From the NCBI GenBank assembly GCA_964016885.1, contig OZ024740.1, forward strand, positions 280,674,001-280,738,000: 64,000 nucleotides of DNA. Reading direction: 5' to 3'. The notes beneath the pieces are model-generated. The model worked only from the letters and a program-made list of their open reading frames with translations. It made no database searches and was not told the DNA's origin. The translations under genes and the position numbers were made by a program. Each line of letters opens with the position of its first letter. Position 1 is the stretch's first letter. This document shows, piece after piece, positions 6,024 to 62,579 of the stretch. Source of the stretch: Eledone cirrhosa. Lineage: Eukaryota.

Positions 6024-6541
6024 GTATGTACCCTTTTCGAAAGTAATAATGCAATTTTAAGATTGTTATATAATGGAAAATATATGAATTAATAGAAGAA
6101 ATCTATTAGGCTGTTGTTAAGAGGATACTAACAATATTAATATTTAAGAGGGGAAATGAGAAGCTGAAAGTTTCTGTCCTTTCAGAAGTCATTGATAAGC
6201 TGGGAAAAGGTGATATGTTTTAAAAGAGGTGAAAGATAACGCATCACAAACTAGCTACGTCGAGGATTTATTAATATAGATATCTAAAGTAATTGGATAT
6301 AAATATATGCTACAGATTGCAACAGTTCGGAAATTGTGCTTACACACGCTGTTTATTAGTAGATATATTTGAATTGAATTCAGAGTGGAAAGGAACTTGT
6401 ATAAATATTGCAGGTTTCAGCATTATTGTATCTCCACCACCTTCATTGTAGATATACAGTTTAGAAATATAATTATACTAAATGTAGCTTGTCAAATATG
6501 TACAAAAGTTTTGAAATATATTTATAACATTTTATTTACAG

Positions 6542-7105
6542 AATGTAGCGGGAAGGCAGCAAATATTGTATTTGTTATGGACTCATCAAGTAGTATTTGG
6601 GTTGTTGACTACAGAAGGCAGATAACATTTGCCCAGAAACTCATAAAAAACTTTCATATTGGGCAAAGTAATTCACATGTGCGAGTTGGCGCCATAACAT
6701 TTAGTGATCGTGCGCATTTGGAATTCTCTCTCGATAAATTCACCAACAAAGAGGATTTGGAAACAGCTTTAGGTGCAATTCCTTATAGAAAAGGGCAGAC
6801 CAATACAGCGGAAGCATTACAGCTTTTAATGAAAGAAGTGAAACCGAAACTGAAAATATATACAGCACCATTCATTGCGATTGTCATAACTGATGGAAAA
6901 TCCCGTGATGCAAATTCTACTCGGAACGCCGCAAAGTTACTCCATGATGCTGGGGTAAACGTCTATGCTATAGGAGTTGGATATAATCTAGATACCAAAG
7001 AGTTAAACGCAATAGCAAGTGACCCTGTACATAATGTCCTCCTCGTCGCTAGCTATACAGCTTTGGAGAAAATTGCCAGCTCTTTTGGTGTTAAAACCTG
7101 TAAAG
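6542..7105 (+). CDS. VWA gene 1 exon 3: von Willebrand factor A domain (matrilin/collagen VI-like)
   Basis: CSGKAANIVFVMDSSSSI (DxSxS MIDAS), VRVGAITFS, GQTNTAEAL, IVITDGKS, VYAIGVG, terminal Cys; acceptor TTTACAG, donor AG|GTATGT, phase 1-1, 564 nt. Confidence 0.95.
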
Positions 7106-7696
7106 GTATGTGCATATAAAATACATAAATAATATACACTTTATTTCATTGCTAATCTTGTGACTAGTTATCTTTAATCAATGTTTTACAAATACGTATT
7201 TCATACGATCTGATCATGATTTCATTATTGGTTAAGTGACTTTGAGGAACACTAAAACGAAAAAAGTGTGTCCGTTTGTTTTCCTGTGTGCCAAAAAGGT
7301 TGATTACTTATTGGGAAACATTTTGTATCACTTTTTCTTGTTCAAATATTTATACTGGCGATTTCATATTTCAAATTCATCAAGAATAGTTAAATAAAAA
7401 TAAACCAGAACAGTGAAGAATGTATTTCGTTTTTTATATCTAGAATAAAAAAGTTGATTGAAAATATGAAGTAGATTTTCATGAATTTAATTGTAAATAA
7501 GCATTATCTATCTGAAATAATTATGGCTAATTATTAGGACAACATTATAGAGTTAAAGGTACTTACAATATCAGATATTGTAAACCTATGGATATATGTT
7601 CCATACTAATAAATATAAAATTATATGAGTTACTCTTATGCACTGAAACTATTTTCTCATTTCGACTCTTACACATCAATTCATAAAATCTTTCAG

Positions 7697-14878: not shown

Positions 14879-15666
14879 CCTAACTCGTCCCTTGGACTGA
14901 GTGTTCTACCACTACGGATATTACCTTCCAGTGTTCCACCACTCTCACTCTCTATATATATATATTTATATTTTGGAATAGTCAACGAAATAAGAAAAAA
15001 GTCTTTACCTACTTACTTTAATGTCCCGACTGCAGTTTCGCTGAGTAACAATAATATTATGAGTATTGTGAGAAACTCAGCTCCAGAGGAAATTTCTCAA
15101 TGAAGAAAGAAAATTCAAGAAAATTCAAGACAGAAAAATCCTTCCGCGTTACCCGCCACGAGTGATAATTTCATATGGTAACTGAAATATATATATTTAA
15201 GAGTTTTAATAATAATTATTATGGCTCAAGTATAATCTCTACTTAAATGTTTTTACGAGATACTTTTACACATGGTGAATGACCAACCATTAAATGATAA
15301 TTGAGGCAAAAATCTAGATTAAAATCAATCCGATTGTTTTCTGAAAATCGACTGAAATTTAAAACAGCCTAAATGTCCAAGAGTTAAATTTTCTAATTAA
15401 AGATAATTTCTGCGAGATAATAGGAAAATGTTGAAAAATTAATGATTTTACCAATAAAAGCTTTTCGTTTAATTAGTTTTGAGATTTTATAGCAGTTAAA
15501 AACGGATTTTTCTTTCTCAATTTACAATGAACACGCCCCCCTTTTATTCTTTTCCTGGTATCGACCATTGGACAATTGTAATGCTGGAGCAGTGTTTTCT
15601 AGGATTTTTGCTCGACTATATCGACACTAATTTATCTGATAATTACTAACACAATGTTTTCAAACG

Positions 15667-16349: not shown

Positions 16350-19035
16350 GCGTAGCCTGTTAATTTATAATAGTTTATAACTTACAATAGTTTATAACTT
16401 TGCCTATTGATCCGTATGGTGAGTAAATGGGGTCCCACGTGCTGGCTTCCCCACAACCCCAGTGGACAGGATGGAGAAGGGGTTTCCCCCGAGGATGGTA
16501 ATGGAGTTGCGCTGGAAGAGCCATTCCAACTCGCGAGGCTTACACCTGCGGCTGACCAGCTTAGCGCCTATGGTGGTGAATAGGAGGTAGCAATAGAGCC
16601 AAGGAACCAGAAGTCTCCACTGCTAAGGGCGCGAACCGCGAACCTGTCGGAGTGCGACCGGTACTTGGAGGGTTTGGCCTCCTCAGCCCGAAGTGCAGCA
16701 GTACCTGGGTTAGTAGTATACTGCACCAGGTTGCGGTTGGAGAATGTGTCGGTGCAATTGGCATCCCAGACGAGGGGTTTGCCACCGCGGAACGGGAAGA
16801 TGGTCATACCATCTGGCCTTTTGCCGTCCCCTCGGTCCAGCTCCACCGGCTCGATTTGGGAGAGGAAGCCTGCAGCGTCCAAGCCATGCTTTATGACCTT
16901 GTTGAGGGCAGCATGGCGTGGAAGGCGGCCTGCACTGTGGCGACGGGAAAGCGGGTGGAGGCCGAAAAGTCCACGGTAGATCCACAGCGACATTTATGTG
17001 GCTCGCAGATCCGGAGTCCAAGTCTGAAGGAAACGCCGATGCGTAGGCTATCGTTATCCAGCTGCGAGCCATTGGAGAGGGAGGGAAAAGCATGGAGCCA
17101 GGCACCACTCTGGAGTTTGGAGGCCGCGCGAAAACAGGCAAGGCAGTGTTGGTCGAGCTGGCGCGTGAGCCTGTCTGAGGCCAGGTTGCACTGGATGGCA
17201 TCCCAAATGCTTTGGCGTATTTGACGTCAGCAGGGGGAGAAGTAGGAGGGACGTCTACTTGAATAAGTCCCAATCTGTCCCACGTCACATAGGCGGCATC
17301 ACGTTCCCTGAACCCAGAGGGTTCTATTGCGTTTTGGAGAACCCTGCTGACGAGGACGCGGCATGAGGTTACCGATGAAAGAAACGCCGGCAAAGCCAGT
17401 GAGATCGGGGACCGGAGACCAAGGCTGCCATATCTGACAGGTAAAGTGGCCTGTTGCCATCCAATGTCGTCAAACCTGACGTTGCATATCTCCTCAGCTG
17501 CCGCTCGGATACAAGTATGGACGTCAACGAGGAGAGATGCGTGGCTGTAGCACGGAGCGCTGCGAAGGGTGTAGAGGAGCTTCGGCATGGCGAAGCAGTT
17601 TCTCAACAGGAAGAGAGTTGGGTTGCCGTCGATCAAGCCCAGTCGGCTCATGAGGGACTGGAGTTGTTGGAGTTTAGACCTGGTAGAGCGGGTGGATCGG
17701 TGACCCGAGACGGAGGCTGCAAAACTCTCAGCATGATGACTGACATTCACCACCTCCGACTTGGACGAGTTGACCTGGAGGCCGATTCCCGCCAGGGCAG
17801 GAACCACCGATTGAAGGTCATGGCAGACAGTCTCTACGGGCCCACCCAGCGTAGCATCATCCAGGTACCAATCATTGAGAGGAAGGGCAGTGATACTCCG
17901 GGAAATGTGGTCTATATCAAGGACAAACAGGAGGGGGTCCACAGGGTCGCCCTGTTGGACCCCAGTGGCCGAAGGTATGATCGTCTCAGCAGTTAGGAAC
18001 ATGCTCGGGTTCCATATGACAAGTAGGCGGAGGGGGATCGGCTGAAGTAGGCATCGAGCAGATGGTCCCGGCGTATGCAGTTAAAGGCATTCCTCATGTC
18101 AAGCTTGACAATGAGGTGCCTGGAGTCCCTGGAAGCCGGTTCCGGTGGGCAGCTGTTGAAGAACTGCCTGGTTGCTTGTGCGGCCTCCTCAAAGCCACCA
18201 GACACGCTGACACCAAGTTGCACCGGACTGAACTCCCGACCCAATTCAGGTGTTATGGACCTGCAGACCACCTTAGCAGCCAGCCTCCGAAAGACATTGC
18301 CCACAGCGATGGGGCGTATGCCACCCTCTTTGTTCCCGAGAGCGGCCAGGCTAGCCGAAAAAAAGAGGCCTCGGGCGTGAGGATCCATGGGACCATGGAT
18401 AAGTCTATTGGTGAGTGCCACAATTGGACTCAGAAGGCGGCGCCCGGCCTCAGCGGAGAGGGGGGATAGCAACTCCTTGAGATGGCCTGGTCGGAGACCA
18501 TCAGCACCTCCGCTGCTGCTAACTGGGAAGGACTTGATGGTAGACATGATGTCTGCGTCAGAAGCCACAAGGAGCAGGTGGCGATCGGGTGGGGGTATGG
18601 GTCGGAGGTCAACGGGTGGCTCAGGGTGCTTGAGTCGCAGGGCAGCCAGGACCTCCTCGGTGGGTTGGAGGACAGTGTCCTCTGAGGCAACCACTCTGAC
18701 TGCGGCCGAGACATCCCCCATGATAAGTTTAGCGTTTACGTGGTCACGCAAACGCTTGGCGCTCTGGCCTCAGGGGTGGAGGATTGGAGGCACCCAAGAG
18801 CAAGAGGTGTAGCGTCCTTCGGCACGCTTGGTATGGGCGCTTGCCCAAAGGACGAAACATTGGCCTTGACAAAGTCTGCTCTCGACAGGCCGCCTCGGTC
18901 AGCGCCAAAGGTGGGGAGGCCGAGGGTGAGTGGCGCGAAATAGAAGAGGCGCTCCCAGTCGCTGGCTCGATTGGAGTTCAGAGCACTCTCGATTGAGAAA
19001 GCGAGGGCATCGGCTACCGGCACCCATATTTGCCA
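16350..19035 (-). mobile_element. CRE-clade-like non-LTR retrotransposon (RT + restriction-like endonuclease), 5'-truncated and frameshifted
   Basis: GGIRPIAVGNVFRRL, LDMRNAFN, GVQQGDP, WYLDD, QQATLPVRYGSLGL, RH..LN, RPDG...GKPLVWD, AEEAK.SKY across ORFs 16561-19059; GC-rich relative to flanks. Confidence 0.85.
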
Positions 19036-22090: not shown

Positions 22091-22874
22091 ACATACATAC
22101 ATGCACGATAGCTGCATCTCACTTTTGAGAATTGCCATTACTTGAGCCTTTTCTCACATATGAGTGGCGCGAACGTGATGTTTTCTCCCGAAAGGACTTA
22201 TATTCATCTTTGCATATGCTGCAACAAAAAGACCATGCCTTTTCAACTACGGTCAGTCATATTCATGCAACACACGTGTAAGATATTTAGTTTTTAATTG
22301 ACGAAAGACCTTGCGCTGGATCAATCCCATACACTAAAACAACGGTGACAGGTATTCCCCAAAAGAACAGGTGAACATTATTGGTTGGCATCGAGTTGTA
22401 GGGCTTATACCAGAGTTTTCCTGCTCCTAAAATGGAATGATGTCTTAACAAGGGCCATGGGTCTACCACTCCAGATTGGCTAACCACGCGCTTGTGTACC
22501 AAACCGAGTATTTTCATACTCTCCCACCACACACACACACACCCATACACACACATATATATATATATATACATACATACATAATTACATACATACATAA
22601 TTACATATATAAATACATACATACACTTGACGCGAGTATTCGCACATGCAACGTAGGAAACTATTCATTAAATTTAAGATGAATACTCTATCCAACGGTA
22701 ATGCCACAACTACCAGCATTGTTAAATAACTGGTTATTCTTCTGAAAACAGATTAATTCCAAAACAGAAATATTCATACAACCATTGCATTCAGCTTACA
22801 AAGATATGCTACAAACAATATGGTTGGACACGACAACATCGACAACTAAACAGAAATTCATTATTTCATATATA

Positions 22875-23265
22875 AGGGCGGTGGATTGGCAGTATCGGTA
22901 GGGGGTCGGACGCCATGCTTCTCCAGCATAGTTACGTCCCTTTACGATCTGAGTTCAAATCTCGCCGAGGTTGACTTTGCCTTTCATCCTTACGGGGTCG
23001 ATAAAATAAAGTACCAGTAAAGCACTGGGTAATTGCTGGCCTTGTGCCTAAAGTAGAAACAATTATTTCATATATAAGGGCGGTGGATTGGCAGTATCGG
23101 TAGGGGGTCGGACGCCATGCTTCTACAGCATAGTTACGTCCCTTTACGGTCTGAGTTCAAATCCCGCCGAGGTTAACTTTGCCTTTCATCCTTACGTGGT
23201 CGATAAAAGAAAGTAATGCACTGGGATAATTGCTGACCTTGTGCCAAACGTAGAAACAATTATTT
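22875..23265 (+). mobile_element. Tandem pair of Deu/Nin-domain tRNA-SINEs
   Basis: Two ~190-bp copies with A box TGGCAGTATCGG, B box GTTCAAATC, core GCCTTTCATCCTTACGGGGTCGATAAAA and tail GTAGAAACAATT; ATTATTTCATATATAAGGG occurs three times. Confidence 0.9.
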
Positions 23266-23415
23266 CATATATAAGGGTGGGTTGACAAGCTCATAGGCTG
23301 ACTATGAAGGAATGCTGCTAATGCTGTGAAATCTTGCATGCATTAATTTTAAATCTTATTAATAACTGCATTGTTTCTTTCCAGGGACTATTTACACACG
23401 CACACACATACATAT

Positions 23416-29550: not shown

Positions 29551-29636
29551 GAATTTCATAAGAATTTTGAGCAGCTTATCTGTTGAGAAACAAATTCAAC
29601 ATACATATTATATACGATATGATGCTTTAAATTAGT

Positions 29637-29689
<53 letters not shown>

Positions 29690-29694
<5 letters not shown>

Positions 29695-31914
29695 TATGAA
29701 GAGAGAAGAAACATTTAGATATAATTAGTAATAAAATGTATCATACCCAAACTGTTCCTAAATTCCTCGACTACGTAGTTTCGTGGCATAAACAAAAACA
29801 ATATATCAAAGATGTAGAGTCCTTGCGAGGTCTGCCGACTTATCAAGAGGATACCTCATTTTACTAGTCTCAAGAACGCGTCTACACGACGTGAGAAAGA
29901 ATCCCAAAAGGCGGAGGGGGAGATAGTCACGCGATATAACGGTCGAGAAACAGAGCTAAGCCTCTTATAACCACGAAAAAAATACCACGGAGGCGGAGGG
30001 GGTATTCATATCGAGGCCGTAGAAGAGGTAGTGAAGAAGGCGAGAAGTATGAGTAATGGAAGCTTTCCAGTTGTCCCCACACCTCAAAGATTGCTCGACC
30101 AGAGGGAGTTATTAATACATTTAGAAACACACAGATACATGCGGACACACACATATATACATGAATGCATCCGCACCCAACTGTGAGTTAAGGGTGCCAA
30201 CTTCACCGATGTTGCTCAATGAATGACTGGGACAGACCAATTCAGTTTGAACCAGACTGAACCAGTATCAGAGTTAAAAATACATTATGAAGAGAGAAGA
30301 AACATTTAGATATAATTAGTAATAAAATGTATCATACCCAAACTGTTCCTAAATTCCTCGACTACGTAGTTTCGTGGCATAAACAAAAACAATATATCAA
30401 AGATATAGAGTCCTTGCGAGGTCTGCCGACTTATCAAGAGGATACCTCATTTTACTAGTCTCAAGAACGCGTCTACACGACGTGAGAAAGAATCCCAAAA
30501 GGCGGAGGGGGAGATAGTCACGCGATATAACGGTCGAGAAACAGAGCTAAGCCTCTTCCTCTTCATAATGTATTTTTAACTCTGATACTGGTTCAGTCTG
30601 GTTCAAACTGAATTGGTCTGTCCCAGTCATTCATTGAGCAACATCGGTGAAGTTGGCACCCTTAACTCACAGTTGGGTGCAGATGCATTCATGTATATAT
30701 GTGTGTGTCCGCATGTATCTGTGTGTTTCTAAATGTATTAATAACTCCCTCTGGTCGAGCAATCTTTGAGGTGTGGGGACAACTGGAAAGCTTCCATTAC
30801 TCATACTTCTCGCCTTCTTCACTACCTCCTCTACGGCCTCGATATGAATACCCCCTCCGCCTCCGTGGTATTTTTTTCGTGGTTATAAGAGGCTTAGCTC
30901 TGTTTCTCGACCGTTATATCGCGTGACTATCTCCCCCTCCGCCTTTTGGGATTCTTTCTCACGTCGTGTAGACGCGTTCTTGAGACTAGTAAAATGAGGT
31001 ATCCTCTTGATAAGTCGGCAGACCTCGCAAGGACTCTATATCTTTGATATATTGTTTTTGTTTATGCCACGAAACTACGTAGTCGAGGAATTTAGGAACA
31101 GTTTGGGTATGATACATTTTATTACTAATTATATCTAAATGTTTCTTCTCTCTTCATAATGTATTTTTAACTCTGATACTGGTTCAGTCTGGTTCAAACT
31201 GAATTGGTCTGTCCCAGTCATTCATTGAGCAACATCGGTGAAGTTGGCACCCTTAACTCACAGTTGGGTGCGGATGCATTCATGTATATATGTGTGTGTC
31301 CGCATGTATCTGTGTGTTTCTAAATGTATTAATAACTCCCTCTGGTCGAGCAATCTTTGAGGTGTGGGGACAACTGGAAAGCTTCCATTACTCATACTTC
31401 TCGCCTTCTTCACTACCTCTTCTACGGCCTCGATATGAATACCCCCTCCGCCTCCGTGGTATTTTTTTCGTGGTTATAAGAGGCTTAGCTCTGTTTCTCG
31501 ACCGTTATATCGCGTGACTATCTCCCCCTCCGCCTTTTGGGATTCTTTCTCACGTCGTGTAGACGCGTTCTTGAGACTAGTAAAATGAGGTATCCTCTTG
31601 ATAAGTCGGCAGACCTCGCAAGGACTCTATATCTTTGATATATTGTTTTTGTTTATGCCACGAAACTACGTAGTCGAGGAATTTAGGAACAGTTTTGGTA
31701 TGATACATTTTATTACTAATTATATCTAAATGTTTCTTCTCTCTTCATAATGTATTTTTAACTCTGATACTGGTTCAGTCTGGTTCAAACTGAATTGGTC
31801 TGTCCCAGTCATTCATTGAGCAACATCGGTGAAGTTGGCACCCTTAACTCACAGTTGGGTGCGGATGCATTCATGTATATATGTGTGTGTCCGCATGTAT
31901 CTGTGTGTTTCTAA

Positions 31915-31919
<5 letters not shown>
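29690..31919. mobile_element. Retrozyme-like array B: 591-bp unit, about 1.5 inverted + 2.3 direct copies, between (TA)n tracts
   Basis: Period 591 (ORF copies at 30699 and 31290; HHRs at 31002 and 31593); inversion junction at 30557/30559; copies differ by only a few substitutions. Confidence 0.9.
31002..31089 (+). ncRNA. Variant (U3-A8) type I hammerhead of array B; copies at 31593-31680(+), 29764-29851(-), 30355-30442(-)
   Basis: TCCTC-TTGATAA-GT(C)GGCA-44-nt loop-TGCCAC-GAAAC-TACGTA-GT-C-GAGGA; 10-nt palindrome ACTACGTAGT; GUC site after 31084. Confidence 0.8.
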
Positions 31920-31963
<44 letters not shown>

Positions 31964-31968
<5 letters not shown>

Positions 31969-36103: not shown

Positions 36104-39100
36104 CTGGCCACAAGGGCCGACATATAGGGGACAATACAAAAGACTGGGACAGTGGGGTTTTACAGAAAAATCGAGTAAACAATATGAATAACAATAACAA
36201 AGTAAGAATAAAGTAACAAGAAAATTACAAGAAAAAATTCCACAATAGGGGGGATGACCACCTAGGCTACGCTCAGGTAACCCACCAGTCCTGAACGACC
36301 CGACGCTTAGAGAGCACTCTGGAAGGGCTCCCCTCTCCTCTTCAAATTTACCTACCTACAGCCGCATGACCAGAGTAGGCTCACTCACACGGGCCATTCT
36401 CGCCACATTCACCCACCTTTCAGTAAATGTACTGGGGGGCAGCACTTCTCTCTCCACCCTCACCTTCCTTTCCAAATGAAACTTGAAAAAGTTGATGAGG
36501 GATTGGCCGAAGAGAAAAGTGTCTGTCTTCAGTCCTTTCAACCTCGTCCACCATACAACCTCTTTCGCTACTGCCACCAGATAGAGGAAAATTGCCTGCC
36601 CTTCCTGGCCAAAAGAAGGAGGCGGGTCGATCTTCACTATGGACTCGGCCGATAGCCCGATCCGTTCTACACGCGACAACAGCTGTTCAACATAACTCCA
36701 CAAGTCAGTAATGCACGGACACTGGACGAGTGCGTGCAGAACGGTTTCGTCGCTCTGCGCGCATCTCGGGCAGGTCCGTCTGACAGCACTTCCGTGCCTG
36801 TAGAGTTTATCTCGAACCGGCAGTGCCCCTCGGTAGCACTGCCAAGCGAGGGATTTTTGGAAATTATCCATCGTCCCCGGCTCGAAAGTCCTCCGGTACA
36901 GACTGGTTAGTTCGACTTCGTTGACTCCCAGAGCCTCTCCGAGTGCGTCGTCGCACTTGCCCACCACTAATCCTCTATAGAACTCGAGAGTGGAAGTTCC
37001 ACTGACCGCATTTCCCACCTGGTAGAGGGCAATGAGTGCCTGGCAACATTCCAGATGCCAGTCACCCAGTCTCGGTCTCTTCTTGTCCCAGGACTGCAAC
37101 TCAGTCAAAGAAATGAGCTGCGGAAAGGCCCGTCTGACAAACGGCGACCACACCTTTTCACCGTTTAGGCAGAATATCTGGAGATCCCGAGGCCTCAGCG
37201 CGTGCCTGCGCATCATTAGCCACGGCATGCCCAGCCCTCCACGTAGAGGGTGCTGGCAGCAGATGGAGCGCCTCACCAGCGGAACCTGACCCTTCCACAA
37301 GAATTTGAAAGGAGCCGCTCCAAGATGGCGAGGCGAGAACGGGGCAAGGGACGACAGTCAGACGGCAGTAGATGACGGACGCGATGTACGCGTTCGCCAC
37401 CTCCGCCCGACCTTTCAGTGATAGCTTCATCGTAGCCCATTTCTTGGTGAGACTGACTACCCTGCCCGTCACCTCGTCCAAATTCTTATCCACCTGGAGG
37501 TCTGGCCCGAACCAAACCCCTAGCAACTTTACCGGTCCGTCCGTCCAGCGCCTAACGACGCTGTTGGACGGCATGGACTTGCCTCTCCAGGTGCCGAGTT
37601 GCAAGCCCACTGACTTTTCCGGGTTAAGTTTTGCTCCCGTCAACCTTTCACATTCTTCCAATAAGTTGCCGACCACCTCGATTTCTGAGGTGTCCGACAG
37701 CATCGCGGTGATGTCGTCCGCATAAGCCGACACAGCCTTTCCGCGTCCCGGTTCGAGCGGGATGCCCTGCAACAGCTCCAGCTTCCGCAGTAAATGCTCG
37801 AGAGTCAATACGTACAGAAGGGAGGAGAGAGGGCACCCTTGACGGACCGATCGGGAGACCTGAAACGGTTCCGAGAGGTGGCCATTAATTTTGACCATCG
37901 AGCAGGTGCCGCTGTGCATTGCAGCGATCCAGCTTCTGAAGACGGGGCCGAAGCCAGCCGCCTTGAGGACAGCCTCCAGGTACCGATGGTCGACCCTATC
38001 GAATGCTTTCGATTGATCTAAATTGATCAGAGCCCCACCGAAGCTAGGTTTACACCCTACCCTCTCTATGATGTATCGCATTAGGTGGAGATTGTCGTGT
38101 ATGGACGTGGTTGGGATTGCGCAAGTTTGCGCCTCCCCAACCAAATCCCCGACGACAAGCGCCAACCTCTTCGCTAACACCCTGGCCCAAATCTTAAACT
38201 CTGTGTTGAGCAGAGTTATGGGCCTGAAATTGTCTAATGTGTCCCTCTTGTTCTGGTCTTTCCTTATCAGCGTCACTACGCCCCGGCTCACAGAACTGGG
38301 AATACTCCCGTTTTGCTGCCAGTTACAGTAGAGGGCTTCGAGGAGATTGCAGAACAAGTCTGGCATATTTACGTAAAGCTCGTAGGGCAGACCATCCAAA
38401 CCGGGTGACTTGCGCCTCATGCAGCCGACAAGGGCATCCTGAACCTCGGCTGAAGTAGTTGGCCTTTCGCAGCGCCCAGCGTCAGCCGTCGAGAGTTGCT
38501 GCAAGCCATCGAGGTAGGGACTGAAGTCCGCCACAATCTCTGACCCGCCACTTCCCCCGAACAACCGAGCAAAATGTTGGCGAAAGGCCTCACACATCCT
38601 CTTGGAATCACTCAGCTCGTGCCCGTCTCGGTTCGTCAAAGACCGAATCGTGGTTTTATTACCACATTGCGCCTATGCCACGCGGGCCCATCGAACAGCT
38701 TTGGTTCTCAGATCACGCGCCTTAGCTCTGACAATGCAACCTTCGTGTTTCGCATTGAAGAAATGGTCTAATGCCATTCTCGCCGCTAGCACATCAGTTG
38801 CATTGCCACTACCAATAGCCTAGTCTAACTTATCTACCAACTCCCCCTCCTTTCTATTTTTCTCTAATGCTACTTCTTTGCTAAACTCTATCAACATTAC
38901 TCTAATCTCTCTTTTGAGAGGCCCCCACCATCTATTGTTGACAACTCCCCCTGTCAACTTTTTCTTAACTAAATTGTTGACCTGGTCCCTGTAAACCTTA
39001 CGTGCCGGAAATGACATGTTTAGCTTCTTATCTAGGTCGACCATACAGATCACAAACTTGTGATCTGAATAGGCGACCGTTTTAAAACGTGGACAGCTTA

Positions 39101-51950: not shown

Positions 51951-52902
51951 GTGAATCAATTATTTATTTAAAATTTTAATAAACAATGCCTGAGGCAAGA
52001 ATATTTATTTCAAAAAATCTTATTAATAGAATGTCGCAACACAAAAGGGGCTATGGATTTTCTAGATTTTTTATCCAGATACTGGTGTGAGTGGTAATCT
52101 TAAGACGAGGAAAAAATAAGACATTTAAGTAATTATGAATCACTACGGACAACTGACGCTGCACACCAGGTCCGAATACAGAAGAGCCGAACTCCCATTG
52201 TCATCGCCTCCATCTCTTTCTAATTATAATAATTGTTTCTACATTTGGCATAAGACCAGCAATTACCCAGTACATTACTGGTACTTTATTTTATCGACCC
52301 CGTAAGGATGAAAGGCAAAGCTAACCTCGGCGGGATTTGAACTCAGATCGTAAAGGGACGTAACTATGCTGGAAAGCATGGCGTCCTACTCTCTACCGAT
52401 ACTCTTTCTAATAATAATAATTGTTTCTACTTTTGGCACAAGGCCAGCAATTAACCAGTGTATTAATGGTACTTTATTTTATCGACCCCGTAAGGATGAA
52501 AGGCAAAGTTAATCTCGGCTGGATTTGAACTCAGAATGGCAAGGGCCGTAACTCTATGCGTCAAAGCATGGCGTCCGACCCTCTACCGATACTGCCAATC
52601 CACCGCTCTTTCTAATAATAATAATAATAATAATACACACACACACACATATATATATATTTACACACACACACATATATATATATATACACATGTATTA
52701 TATATACACATTATTTGAGGCCCTACTTGGTCACGAACAACCATGGTTTTGCACGTAGAAATTTCCCTCTGAGGCACAAGTGCTCAATGGACTAGGAAGA
52801 AGCCAGAGCAATTAACATACGTTATAAGGACCAGACACATTATAAAATTGTTTATATTTATGTAAGAATATTTTCAAAACAGCGAGTGGGTTTGAAATTA
52901 TT

Positions 52903-56770: not shown

Positions 56771-59147
56771 CTGAAAAACATACCTATACCTACAAATAAG
56801 GACTATACACTGGGCATGATACAACGGACTAATGATTTCATCCGTAGGGTCCGATGGAAGTCTTACCATTTCGACAAATGACCAGCTATTCACGCAAGAG
56901 AATTTTCTAAAGAGAATTACGGATTTAAATCCTGCAAAAACCCTCGAAACCACCCCACACTCGATGCCTTCGAGCTGGACCTTATGAATATGATAAGTGG
57001 AACTAAGTTAAAAAAAAGATCACATCACAACAAATTACAAAATGACATCAATACACTACTAAAAAAACTAAAAGACACTAACGGTATCATAGTAAAGGCA
57101 GACAAAACATCAAACGTATACTCTATGGACCTTAACACATACAATAATTTTATTCAGCGTGAACTACATAAAAAATACAAAAAAAACAAATGAATCCACA
57201 CTCACCAGCATTAACGTGGAGGGCCTTAGGATAGTAAATAAACTCGGAATACCTGATAGGACCGAGCCTCTAACCCCATGCAACCCCACATTTAACCTGA
57301 AGGATCACAAAAATAATTTTGAAACAAACCCTACTATTAGATTAATATGCCCATCTAAGTCAGATATAGGTAAAATTAGCAAGAACATTCTAGATAGGGT
57401 AATCGCACAAATAAAGGGTAAACTAGAAATCAATTTATGGGGTAATACTAACGAGGCGATTGAATGGTTCAATAAAATACGAAATAGGGAGACATGTAAC
57501 TTCATACAATTTGATATAAACAACTACTATGCATCCATATCCCCAACCACCTTAGAGAAAGCGCTTATATTTGCCCAAAATAATTCCGATCTTACCCCTG
57601 AGGAAATTGAAATAATAATAGCGGCTAGAAGGACTATCATAAAATTTAAAAATAGCTACTGGGTAAGAAGATATAGGATAAACAGCTTCGATATCACAAT
57701 GGGATCAAATGACTATGCGCAAATCACTGACATCGTAGGGCTATTTATAGCACACAACCTACATAAGGAATTCAGTAACCTCCAAGGAGGGATTTATGAA
57801 GACGACACGCTCCTTATAGCTAGCAACTTAAACAACCAGAGCATGGAAAGATTAAGAAAACACATTAGAACATTCTTCAAAAAACTAGGCCTAAGTAATA
57901 CCTAGGAACTGAACCATAAGAAGGTAAACTTTCTAGATGTGACTCTAAATCTAAATACGGGATTAATAGAACCTTTCCACAAAAATAATGAAAATCTGGC
58001 CTACATTAGTTATAACTCAAACCACCCCAAATCCATAATCAGATCCATAGCACGTAGTATATCCCTTAGAATATCACGCTTATCCTCAAACCTTAAAATG
58101 GTTAATGAACATGCTAACTTTTATAACGCAGCATTACATAGGGCTGGACATAAAGATAAACTGCATTATATAGCGAATAAAGACAACTTAAACAAACCTA
58201 ATAGCAATTACACCAACCGCTCACACAAAAATAGAGGTAACACGACTAGACATAGAGTTAGGCAGGTAGAACCTAGAGTAAGCGGTCTAAACACCAATAA
58301 TGTAAACCCTAGAAACAATAGAAGAATCAGAGAAAGAAAATACCTATGGTTCAACCCAATCTTCAACTCCTCTGTAAAAACCAGACTGCCTTCTACATTC
58401 TTTAAACTAATAGATAAACACTTCCCTATTTCACACAGATATCATAAAATACTCAATAGAAACACTATAAAACTCTCATACTCTACGGCAGCAAATATAG
58501 AATCGCACATACACAAGATCAACCACAGAAATATCTCTAGGGAATCCGGCCCACCTATGCGCAACATAACACCAAATTATAAGCATAAACACATCACAGT
58601 ATCACAACCGCAAGCGCATACAAGCACGCAGCAGCAAAACCCCAACGGGCATGAATCACAACCCACTTATAGCAGTGTACAAAACAGCAGTGTAGAAGCT
58701 GCACGAAATAACACCTCAAACTGTAACTGCCACCTACCGGATAGGTGCCCATTGGCGAATAGATGCCTCGATTCGAGCCTAGTGTACATGTGTACGGTCA
58801 ACTCAGACAACTCCACTTGGCATTACATTGGATCCACCGCGAGTACTTTTAAAAACAGATGGTATGTGCACAAACACTCGATGAAAATTCGTGCACTTAT
58901 GGGTTCTACAACCCTCGCCAAAAAAATCTGGGAACTTAAGGACAACAACACCAACTACAGTATCAACTGGTCTAGGTTGTCGGCCGCAAAGACCTACAGT
59001 ACCGGTATGTCCCACTGTAGGCTATGTGATCTAGAATTACTGTATATCCTTAGAAATGTAAAAAGGCTACTTAACAACAAGTTAGAAAGATCTATCTTCT
59101 GCAGACACAGGATCACCACTAAATTCACAAGATTTAAACCTCCGTGA
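56771..59147 (+). pseudogene. Disrupted PLE RT + GIY-YIG endonuclease ORF
   Basis: LKNIPIP..RVRWK, ADKT.N.Y, LKDHK, RLICP, FDI..YY.SI, MGS, YEDD, FLDV, SNHP, CNC..CP...C, VY..YIG, CRLC..E, CRH; disrupted by TGA 56879, a frameshift in the A-run near 57180 and TAG 57903. Confidence 0.88.
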
Positions 59148-61513: not shown

Positions 61514-61576
61514 TAAGACTATATTATCTACTGTATTTGGTGTATATATTTATATGAATATCTTTGCATTTTCTAG

Positions 61577-62140
61577 GATGTTCGGGAAAGGCAGCTAGCA
61601 TTGTGTTTGTCTTAGATTCTTCAAGTAGTGTTTGGATAGAAGACTACCGAAGACAATTAAAATTTGTCACCAAACTAGTGGACAGCTTTGATATTAACCC
61701 AAAGGGAACTAGTGTTCAAGTTGGAGTAATAACGTTTAGTAGCAGATCGAATTTAGATATCTCCTTAAACAAATTTACTACGAAAGAATATCTCAAAGCT
61801 GCCATTTTGACTATTCCTTACCGAAGTGGAACAACAAATACCGCGAAGGCATTAATTTTACTGAGAAAAGAAATGCAATCTGTGCTCGCAAAACGTCCCG
61901 GTCCTTTCATTGCTATTATTGTCACAGATGGCCATTCCCGGCAACCTAATGCAACAGCAAAAGAAGCCAAACAACTTCATCAACTGGGAATCAATGTTTA
62001 TGCTATAGGTGTTGGTAATAAGTACAGTCTTGCAGAATTGAAAGTGCTTGCCAGTGATCCCGAAGAAAACGTCTACCAAGTCACTGACTATCACGCGTTA
62101 GAAACGCTCTCTCAACGACTCGACATAAAGACATGCAATG
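61577..62140 (+). CDS. VWA gene 2 exon 3: VWA domain (downstream exons not identified in the window)
   Basis: CSGKAASIVFVLDSSSSVW, GTTNTAKAL, IVTDGHS, VYAIGVG, KTC; same 564-nt length and phases as gene 1 exon 3. Confidence 0.95.
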
Positions 62141-62579
62141 GTAAAGTTAATGACATTACTGTTTTTACTATATTTTAAAAAAATGTTTCCATCTTACTTG
62201 AAATTCATTTTGCTGCAGATTTACAATCATTACTCAATAGTTTAAACTAGTCAAGTAGTTTGTATCATCAGTGTCTGTTATAAGTGAAATACATATACAT
62301 TTTGATTACTTTCTTATCTATCTTAAGGAAATCTACATTTTTATATAGTCGAGCTATGGATTCGGACATTCGAATAGTTATCAAATATATACACACGAAT
62401 ATTGACAAACTTGTGAATATACGTATAAAATATTTCCATAATGCAACTCCAGTTAATATTTTAAAACTATTTTGAAAATAGCATAATTAAAACCATCTTT
62501 AACTTTATATTAAGCTGATACTAACACACTATATTAAATGTTGATATCGTTTTGTCAGTAACATGAGAGATTAGTGTAT

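Follow-up and report, generated by a model that had tools for sequence, protein, structure and literature searches.

A two-armed retrozyme insertion between (TA)n tracts

The window analysed here is a 64,000-nt stretch of Eledone cirrhosa contig OZ024740.1 (assembly GCA_964016885.1, positions 280,674,001 to 280,738,000, forward strand), and the element in question is a retrozyme insertion in which a 591-bp unit forms two opposed arms with a (TA)n tract on either side (Table 1). Unit positions are counted from window position 30559. The left arm (A arm, 869 nt) is the reverse complement of unit 329 to 591, 1 to 591 and 1 to 15, and the right arm (B arm) reads 1 to 591 twice, followed by 1 to 180. 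Both outer ends of this copy read AATGTAT and run into (TA)n; the left one, read in sense, is CTCTTCATAATGTAT, the same unit position as the start of the right arm. The inverted block, the sense letters of its outer end, the start of the direct block and the AATGTAT ends had all been described in the original prediction for this DNA, and the sequence agrees with it on each of them. No open reading frame (ORF) of at least 150 aa was found within window 29.6-32 kb.

The arms meet in the letters CTCTT (30553-57), C (30558) and CTCTT (30559-63). The prediction had proposed one shared CTCTT microhomology here. At this copy the join is rather a short doubling or, when best aligned, a 4-nt TCTT overlap with a 1-nt deletion; microhomology is nevertheless real across the family, reaching at least 2 nt at 29/75 junctions (15% in random joins) and at least 4 nt at 11/75 (1.6%). 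The identity of the two AATGTAT ends is specific to a subfamily with G at unit 177 (55/137 insertions), the majority having AATATAT at the B end. At four related loci (L033, L039, L049 and L057) the same impure repeat motif flanks the insertion on both sides, and therefore the (TA)n tracts pre-date the insertions.

Every unit bears the core, stems and palindromic stem III of a type I hammerhead. In the B arm these parts are stem I, the core TTGATAA at 31007, a long stem II, GAAA at 31071, the palindromic stem III ACTACGTAGT and a GTC triplet, behind which the cut is predicted. The core can be read as a U3-A8 pair replacing C3-G8; PMC11167929 describes the C3-G8 pair of hammerheads together with its compensatory rescue (this and the other papers cited here are drawn on in part). 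None of the 47 shared-variant sites lies among the 21 positions that make up the core and stem III, and a sister family (~78-82% identity) retains the hammerhead core with a different stem III palindrome, ACTGTACAGT. By its structure, the window element is a non-long terminal repeat (non-LTR) retrozyme with predicted self-cleavage. It resembles the metazoan non-LTR retrozymes in its non-coding tandem unit, type I hammerhead with palindromic stem III, GC content below 45%, dispersed dimers to multimers and the presence of Penelope-like elements (PLEs) in the same genome; it differs from them in the longer unit (591 nt), the U3-A8 core and a stem II of about 57 nt.

Members of a diverged sister retrozyme family, at 75-83% identity, were seen at L071 (6016-6350), L084 (218-436), L108 (1-700) and L214 (4603-5271); they share the hammerhead plan and have A-type and B-type ends. 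On the reverse strand at window ~14950-15040 there is a further motif resembling a hammerhead, whose core is U3-A8 and whose stem III is palindromic.

Table 1. Features of the retrozyme insertion, in window coordinates (RT, reverse transcription)
Feature	Position	Strand	Remarks
Left (TA)n target tract	29636..29691		
Site A end (..TTTCTTCTCTCTTCATAATGTAT)	29689..29712	-	80 nt 3' of predicted ribozyme cut; putative RT start
A arm	29690..30557	-	1.47 units, unit 329 to 15; outer 3' end is fixed site A
Type I hammerhead copy, A arm	29760..29855	-	predicted cut after 29769; mapped from unit 440-535
Type I hammerhead copy, A arm	30351..30446	-	predicted cut after 30360; mapped from unit 440-535
Head-to-head junction of arms, CTCTT-C-CTCTT	30553..30563
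B arm	30559..31920	+	2.31 units, unit ~586/1 to 180; outer 3' end is fixed site B
Unit 212 G, recurrent array-wide A>G mark	30770, also 31361 and A arm	+	3/3 passes
Type I hammerhead, B arm	30998..31093	+	predicted cut after 31084; by eye and pattern
Second hammerhead copy, B arm	31589..31684	+	predicted cut after 31675; 591-nt repeat of the first
Site B end (..TGTGTTTCTAAATGTAT)	31899..31920	+	165 nt 3' of A within unit; putative second RT start
Right (TA)n target tract	31918..31966		

Pairing of two fixed ends across the family

In a genome of about 3 Gb, the exact A-end word has at least 1,837 matches, compared with 0 for a control word, and the B end, in two spellings, has at least 139 and 677 exact matches; the family is put at about two thousand genomic copies. 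The sample comprised 138 loci (38 best matches, 80 taken among the 100 A ends listed first and 20 from listed B ends), to which 32 loci chosen by their variants were added later. The outer ends of the copies were found to be fixed, either at A (unit 15) or at B (unit 180-182). Two-armed copies paired A with B in 79/83 cases in the 138 loci (two are tandem duplicates), the exceptions being a compound locus, in which a stretch of target separates the arms, and three arms that end elsewhere. The added loci gave 16/17, so that 95 of the combined 100 two-armed copies pair A and B, one per arm, at sites 165 nt apart. Copies picked by their A end had a B partner in 47/48 cases and an A partner in none, and no AA or BB pair occurred among the two-armed copies sampled. 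About 57 copies were single-armed.

Arm lengths range from 0.05 to 8.8 units with a mean of about 600 nt, and fit an exponential distribution (Kolmogorov-Smirnov p=0.31, 0.08). No correlation in length was found between the two arms of a copy (rho -0.07), and equal inner ends of both arms were not enriched (8/72, with 5.0 expected). Among ~95 copies, junctions and flanks differ from locus to locus, and arms differ in length and end site. The head-to-head inversion is confirmed as real and as the normal form of this retrozyme family.

At L073 and L211, whole two-armed insertions are tandemly duplicated. In L082 (3405-3465), a short word derived from the unit is repeated several times in tandem and fills the junction, which suggests repeated slippage during joining.

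Template form and A>G marks

Site A lies 80 nt and site B 245 nt downstream of the predicted cut, and therefore the longer arms cross it. At loci picked by their A end, 75 of 83 A arms cross the cut site, 36 of them twice, and unit 518-529 is free of indels in all 351 passes over it. Nor is there a pile-up of inner ends at the cut (2/201, with 2.4 expected); they are spread over the whole unit, the sharpest retrozyme peak containing 10/201. Sequence divergence is 0.37% within an arm, 0.38% between arms and 2.25% between insertions. Comparisons between arms at diagnostic sites were discordant in 18 of 1,473 cases, compared with 16% in cross-insertion controls; since the arms so rarely disagree, both appear to derive from one template. 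The A-picked insertions hold 47 haplotypes among 54.

The claim that the arms span intact predicted cut sites thus stands, and the circular monomer that accompanied it is the best reading of the template, well supported as far as genomic copies allow it to be judged. The original prediction had also expected circularly permuted start and end points and variable copy number from a circle. Inner ends are permuted and copy number varies; the outer 3' ends are fixed. Shared fixed termini had been taken to speak against a circle, which was mis-specified: fixed outer ends together with permuted inner ends fit a circle read from internal starts.

Several minor observations concern the inner ends and the templates. 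The inner-end peaks lie at unit 111-115 (window 30669-30673), which falls within a GC hairpin's loop, where a pause or nick is possible, and at about unit 290-345 (window 30848-30903), with GC boxes and a word resembling TATA close by. At L051, L060, L064 and L177, private variants occur in single passes of both arms with no common template order, possibly by gene conversion between arms or from a damaged template base. A heterogeneous multimeric circle was considered for the shared single-pass variants of L060 and rejected, the order being reversed. A 621-nt self-closing contig from one sequencing run was not used as evidence of a circle, as any tandem repeat yields one in de Bruijn assembly. 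The unit was found in sequencing runs under 17 organism codes from 16 studies; in three lesser runs it had low depth and the majority haplotype, possibly by carry-over or mixing of samples.

A census of variant events was made on 167 insertions (L033 and L216 dropped, 14 unassigned). Among array-wide variants recurring on at least two backbone subfamilies, 12/15 are sense-strand A>G, or 10/13 without the sites used for picking. All array-wide events comprise 93 A>G and 14 T>C of 169, in a unit with 133 A and 212 T, whereas changes confined to one pass are strand-symmetric (18 A>G and 41 T>C of 274). At 12 hot sites, G was present in all passes 82 times and in part of them 5 times; in the A-picked loci the figures were 37 and 3, compared with 3.6 and 86.9 expected if passes were independent. 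In the window copy, 547G occurs in 3/4 passes. Of the 9 variants that L082 has fixed across the 7-8 passes of its two arms, 7 are A>G, and its 48G/49G word has 7 occurrences in the genome, all within that insertion. Four marks, 155G, 275G, 286G and 358G, come together in L223; among the matches listed, each of them also occurs separately elsewhere. The 358G variant occurs on backgrounds from the oldest to the youngest, and in every pass at 6/7 multi-pass loci. Pairing probability is 0.72 at A>G sites, compared with 0.56.

From this A>G spectrum alone we infer adenosine-to-inosine editing of the template RNA by ADAR. The all-or-none distribution of the marks points to a single RNA circle, whose edits would be read on each lap by both reverse transcriptases. 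A linear multimer is disfavoured because its edits would fall on single units.

Penelope-like elements, mechanism and alternatives

A search for GIY-YIG returned 10,596 candidates, of which 50 were examined. In a young PLE family (L140/L141), RVT_1 and, at the C terminus, GIY-YIG share one ORF with the motifs GxKF and DKG, a CX2-5CxxC linker and CCHH, and with no Hydra features (DKT, CxCX5C, no CCHH); by these motifs, judged against definitions in PMC8557442, it is a Neptune-type PLE. The reference copy L140 (G000:C1:145867500-145877000) has a period of about 4,979 bp, and the family also includes L144, L147, L148 and L150. Its two ends lie 66 nt apart, have 3,068 and 6,894 exact matches, and are accompanied by a U3-A8 hammerhead, from whose predicted cut the A end is 82 nt distant (80 nt in the retrozyme). 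Over the initial 48 Mb of contig 1, one end of each kind is present in 28/30 head-to-head PLE pairs (p=1e-8). Many short head-to-head stubs of 260-390 bp belong to this family. In 6/31 cases the arms of such short copies start at -70 to -72 relative to the hammerhead cut, 30 nt after a TATA, which is likely the transcription start. The stubs show two things: a linear template can be recognised by the sharp trace it leaves, and this genome makes use of uncut ones. Other PLE families (L145, L151, L156, L157, L158 and L112) have U3-A8 hammerhead cores too.

Two features for which PLEs are known are an inverted 5'-truncated copy and, on one side, a tail of 30-40 bp (Craig et al. 2021, PMC8557442), and in vitro a PLE was found to cleave two strands and to start reverse transcription at two internal sites with the tail between them (Frangieh et al. 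2024, PMC11167929). The retrozyme behaves as a PLE-mobilised insertion, with an inverted arm, a tail at one end only and a (TA)n target; the genome also has an active, EN+ PLE that obeys the same rule of ends. The retrozyme shares with PLEs the head-to-head build, the one-sided tail, the target and a hammerhead just upstream of the ends, and differs in having no ORF, a tail of 165 nt and arms that are multimers of one small unit.

A mechanism by which PLE machinery copies one edited RNA circle into (TA)n, by rolling-circle reverse transcription from two sites, is in our judgement probable as a whole. Tandem units would be transcribed, cut by the hammerhead and ligated into a circle, as the motif and the retrozymes of other animals suggest, and ADAR may edit some adenosines of the circle, as the A>G pattern suggests. 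A PLE protein, probably a dimer, would cleave both strands of (TA)n (here the target is seen and the enzyme presumed), and one DNA end would prime at A and the other at B, in keeping with the observed pairing; the earlier proposal that both target strands prime reverse transcription within (TA)n is supported. Each reverse transcriptase would run until it drops off at random, in keeping with the observed lengths, and the two cDNA ends would be joined head to head, often by the 1-8 nt of microhomology observed. In single-armed copies the second arm would be absent or lost. We lean, if only slightly, towards a PLE reverse transcriptase dimer that binds one circle asymmetrically and runs two rolling-circle reactions simultaneously, each insertion being the record of one edited circular RNA.

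A number of results weigh against this mechanism. The hammerhead was recognised by eye and pattern; an Rfam scan gave no hammerhead, only low-complexity miRNA matches, and the free fold of the region does not exceed shuffles (z -0.73). The subfamilies of the census were set by hand-picked sites, and its events share ancestry and so are not independent. A test for A>G among rare variants (15/47 vs 13/199 in the first set, p=8e-5 pooled over both sets) failed to replicate in the 32 added loci (3/27 vs 7/86). A>G sites show no more four-gamete conflicts than other sites (p=0.76), the neighbour bias of ADAR is weak (5' G 4/32 vs 28/133), and unedited multimer templates escape the test by A>G marks. 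At L088, L093 and L095, single mutated units were later duplicated at the DNA level; in a parent search for L093, the two other loci with 338T differ in haplotype. The PLE short copies, in which an uncut hammerhead is traversed from a linear 5' start, come from a linear uncut RNA. Alignment of the L140 pseudo-long terminal repeat with the retrozyme ends does not exceed shuffles, and the family is therefore a candidate partner only. According to PMC11167929, reactions in vitro take chiefly uncleaved RNA as substrate, and the two starts are used without strand preference, unlike the strict pairing of one site per strand in the retrozyme. Finally, contigs assembled from four sequencing runs included no piece crossing the window junction.

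An unlikely alternative is the same two-site priming on another template, an existing array's linear multimeric transcript that has not been cleaved. The origin of the PLE short copies and the in vitro preference for uncleaved RNA speak for it, as does the poor cleavage by PLE hammerheads (PMC4209133), and unedited arrays, invisible to the A>G marks, could account for the 18 of 44 well-covered A-picked insertions that have no array-wide hot-site G. It would predict single-pass A>G, however, and the one-pass changes have no such excess; each of the dozens of haplotypes would require a long homogeneous source array, which for L082 is absent from the assembly, and no dominant 5' run-off site was found. 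Somewhat less credible still is a cleaved linear monomer with its ends held together, on which the reverse transcriptase jumps from the 5' end to its own 3' end at every lap. Clonality and A>G marks would be identical under this model, and what speaks against it are the 351 crossings without an indel at the cut and the lack of ends piled there: in work on R2, end-to-end jumps usually add or lose bases.

A very improbable explanation is that short insertions were expanded later by unequal crossover or gene conversion, which homogenised units and arms. Li, Clavereau and Pollet (2026, bioRxiv 10.64898/2026.07.22.740005) put such expansion forward and favour local amplification for tandems. The unit duplications at L088, L093 and L095 agree with it, as do the private single-pass variants common to both arms in L051, L060 and L064. 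Yet expansion presupposes an arm longer than one unit and cannot yield a sense-strand A>G bias, arm lengths are smoothly exponential, and the 274 one-pass mutations at the DNA level remain unhomogenised. In L1 twin priming, both target strands prime on one RNA and an inverted 5' block is joined by microhomology. This was the mechanism originally predicted for the window copy, whose geometry it suits, and the retrozyme shares with it the priming by both strands and the microhomology at the junctions. It calls for one fixed 3' end and for a second primer that anneals internally, at a microhomology of variable position, whereas both retrozyme sites are fixed, one per arm, no poly(A) and no AA or BB pairs occur, and the start of one arm is unrelated to the end of the other. 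Among 72 simple two-armed copies, 4 have a B arm beginning no more than 20 nt from A, with 5.0 expected, and in 2 the A arm begins as close to B; because near-A starts are no commoner than expected, the match between direct start and inverted end in the window, which had been given mechanistic weight, is put down to chance. On the copies sampled, L1-type priming is refuted at the level of the family and only barely conceivable for it. That the inversion is an artefact of assembly or of fold-back reads, as the missing contig across the window junction might suggest, can be almost dismissed in view of about 95 copies with distinct junctions and distinct flanks on each side; moreover, the arms end at different sites and have their own mutations, hence are not mirror copies, and the two-armed build is shared by a PLE and the sister family.

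For metazoan non-LTR retrozymes, a circular RNA was proposed as the template of reverse transcription by Cervera and de la Pena (2020, PMC7229834), and PMC4209133 likewise proposes such templates; in both papers rolling-circle copying is a proposal rather than a demonstration. The parts drawn on of PMC7229834 and of Li, Clavereau and Pollet (2026) mention neither arms joined head to head nor a pair of fixed ends nor marks of editing, and the PLE in vitro study gives no strand difference in start site. In the open-access literature, taken without the bioRxiv supplements, figure S9 of PMC7229834 and Repbase, we found no A/B rule for retrozymes and no A>G marks of this kind. Open questions are the spread of hammerhead repeats in animal genomes and the reason for the inversion and one-sided tail of Penelope insertions. 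The thousands of young copies allow two direct tests, of the rule of one start site per strand and of circle versus multimer by the A>G marks, and the 591-nt RNA, its start sites being mapped, lends itself readily to in vitro work on rolling-circle target-primed reverse transcription. Copying of an edited template would be a route for RNA edits into inherited DNA. If the dimer and circle reading is true, it would prove the circle model of retrozymes from genome sequence and explain the one-sided PLE tail, and RNA editing would be one of the chief sources of heritable variation for the family. A functional analogy may be drawn with the bacterial defence reverse transcriptase DRT2 (PMC12039810), which reportedly makes tandem cDNA from a non-coding RNA. 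In both cases many tandem copies arise from one RNA template; DRT2 is bacterial, with neither genomic integration nor a ribozyme.

Elsewhere in the window, two forward reading frames with VWA domains (6373-7119 and 61558-62178) lie on either side of the insertion, which probably sits in an intron of a multi-VWA gene. Adjacent forward frames of 269 and 413 aa at 57096-59147 have no Pfam match. Broken non-LTR retrotransposon frames occur on the reverse strand at 36356-38672 (RVT_1 and zf-RVT) and at 16710-18769 (a weaker RVT_1 remnant). Two-copy tandems of 202 and 188 bp, at 22860-23277 and 52214-52593 respectively, have what we take to be a look like that of short interspersed elements.
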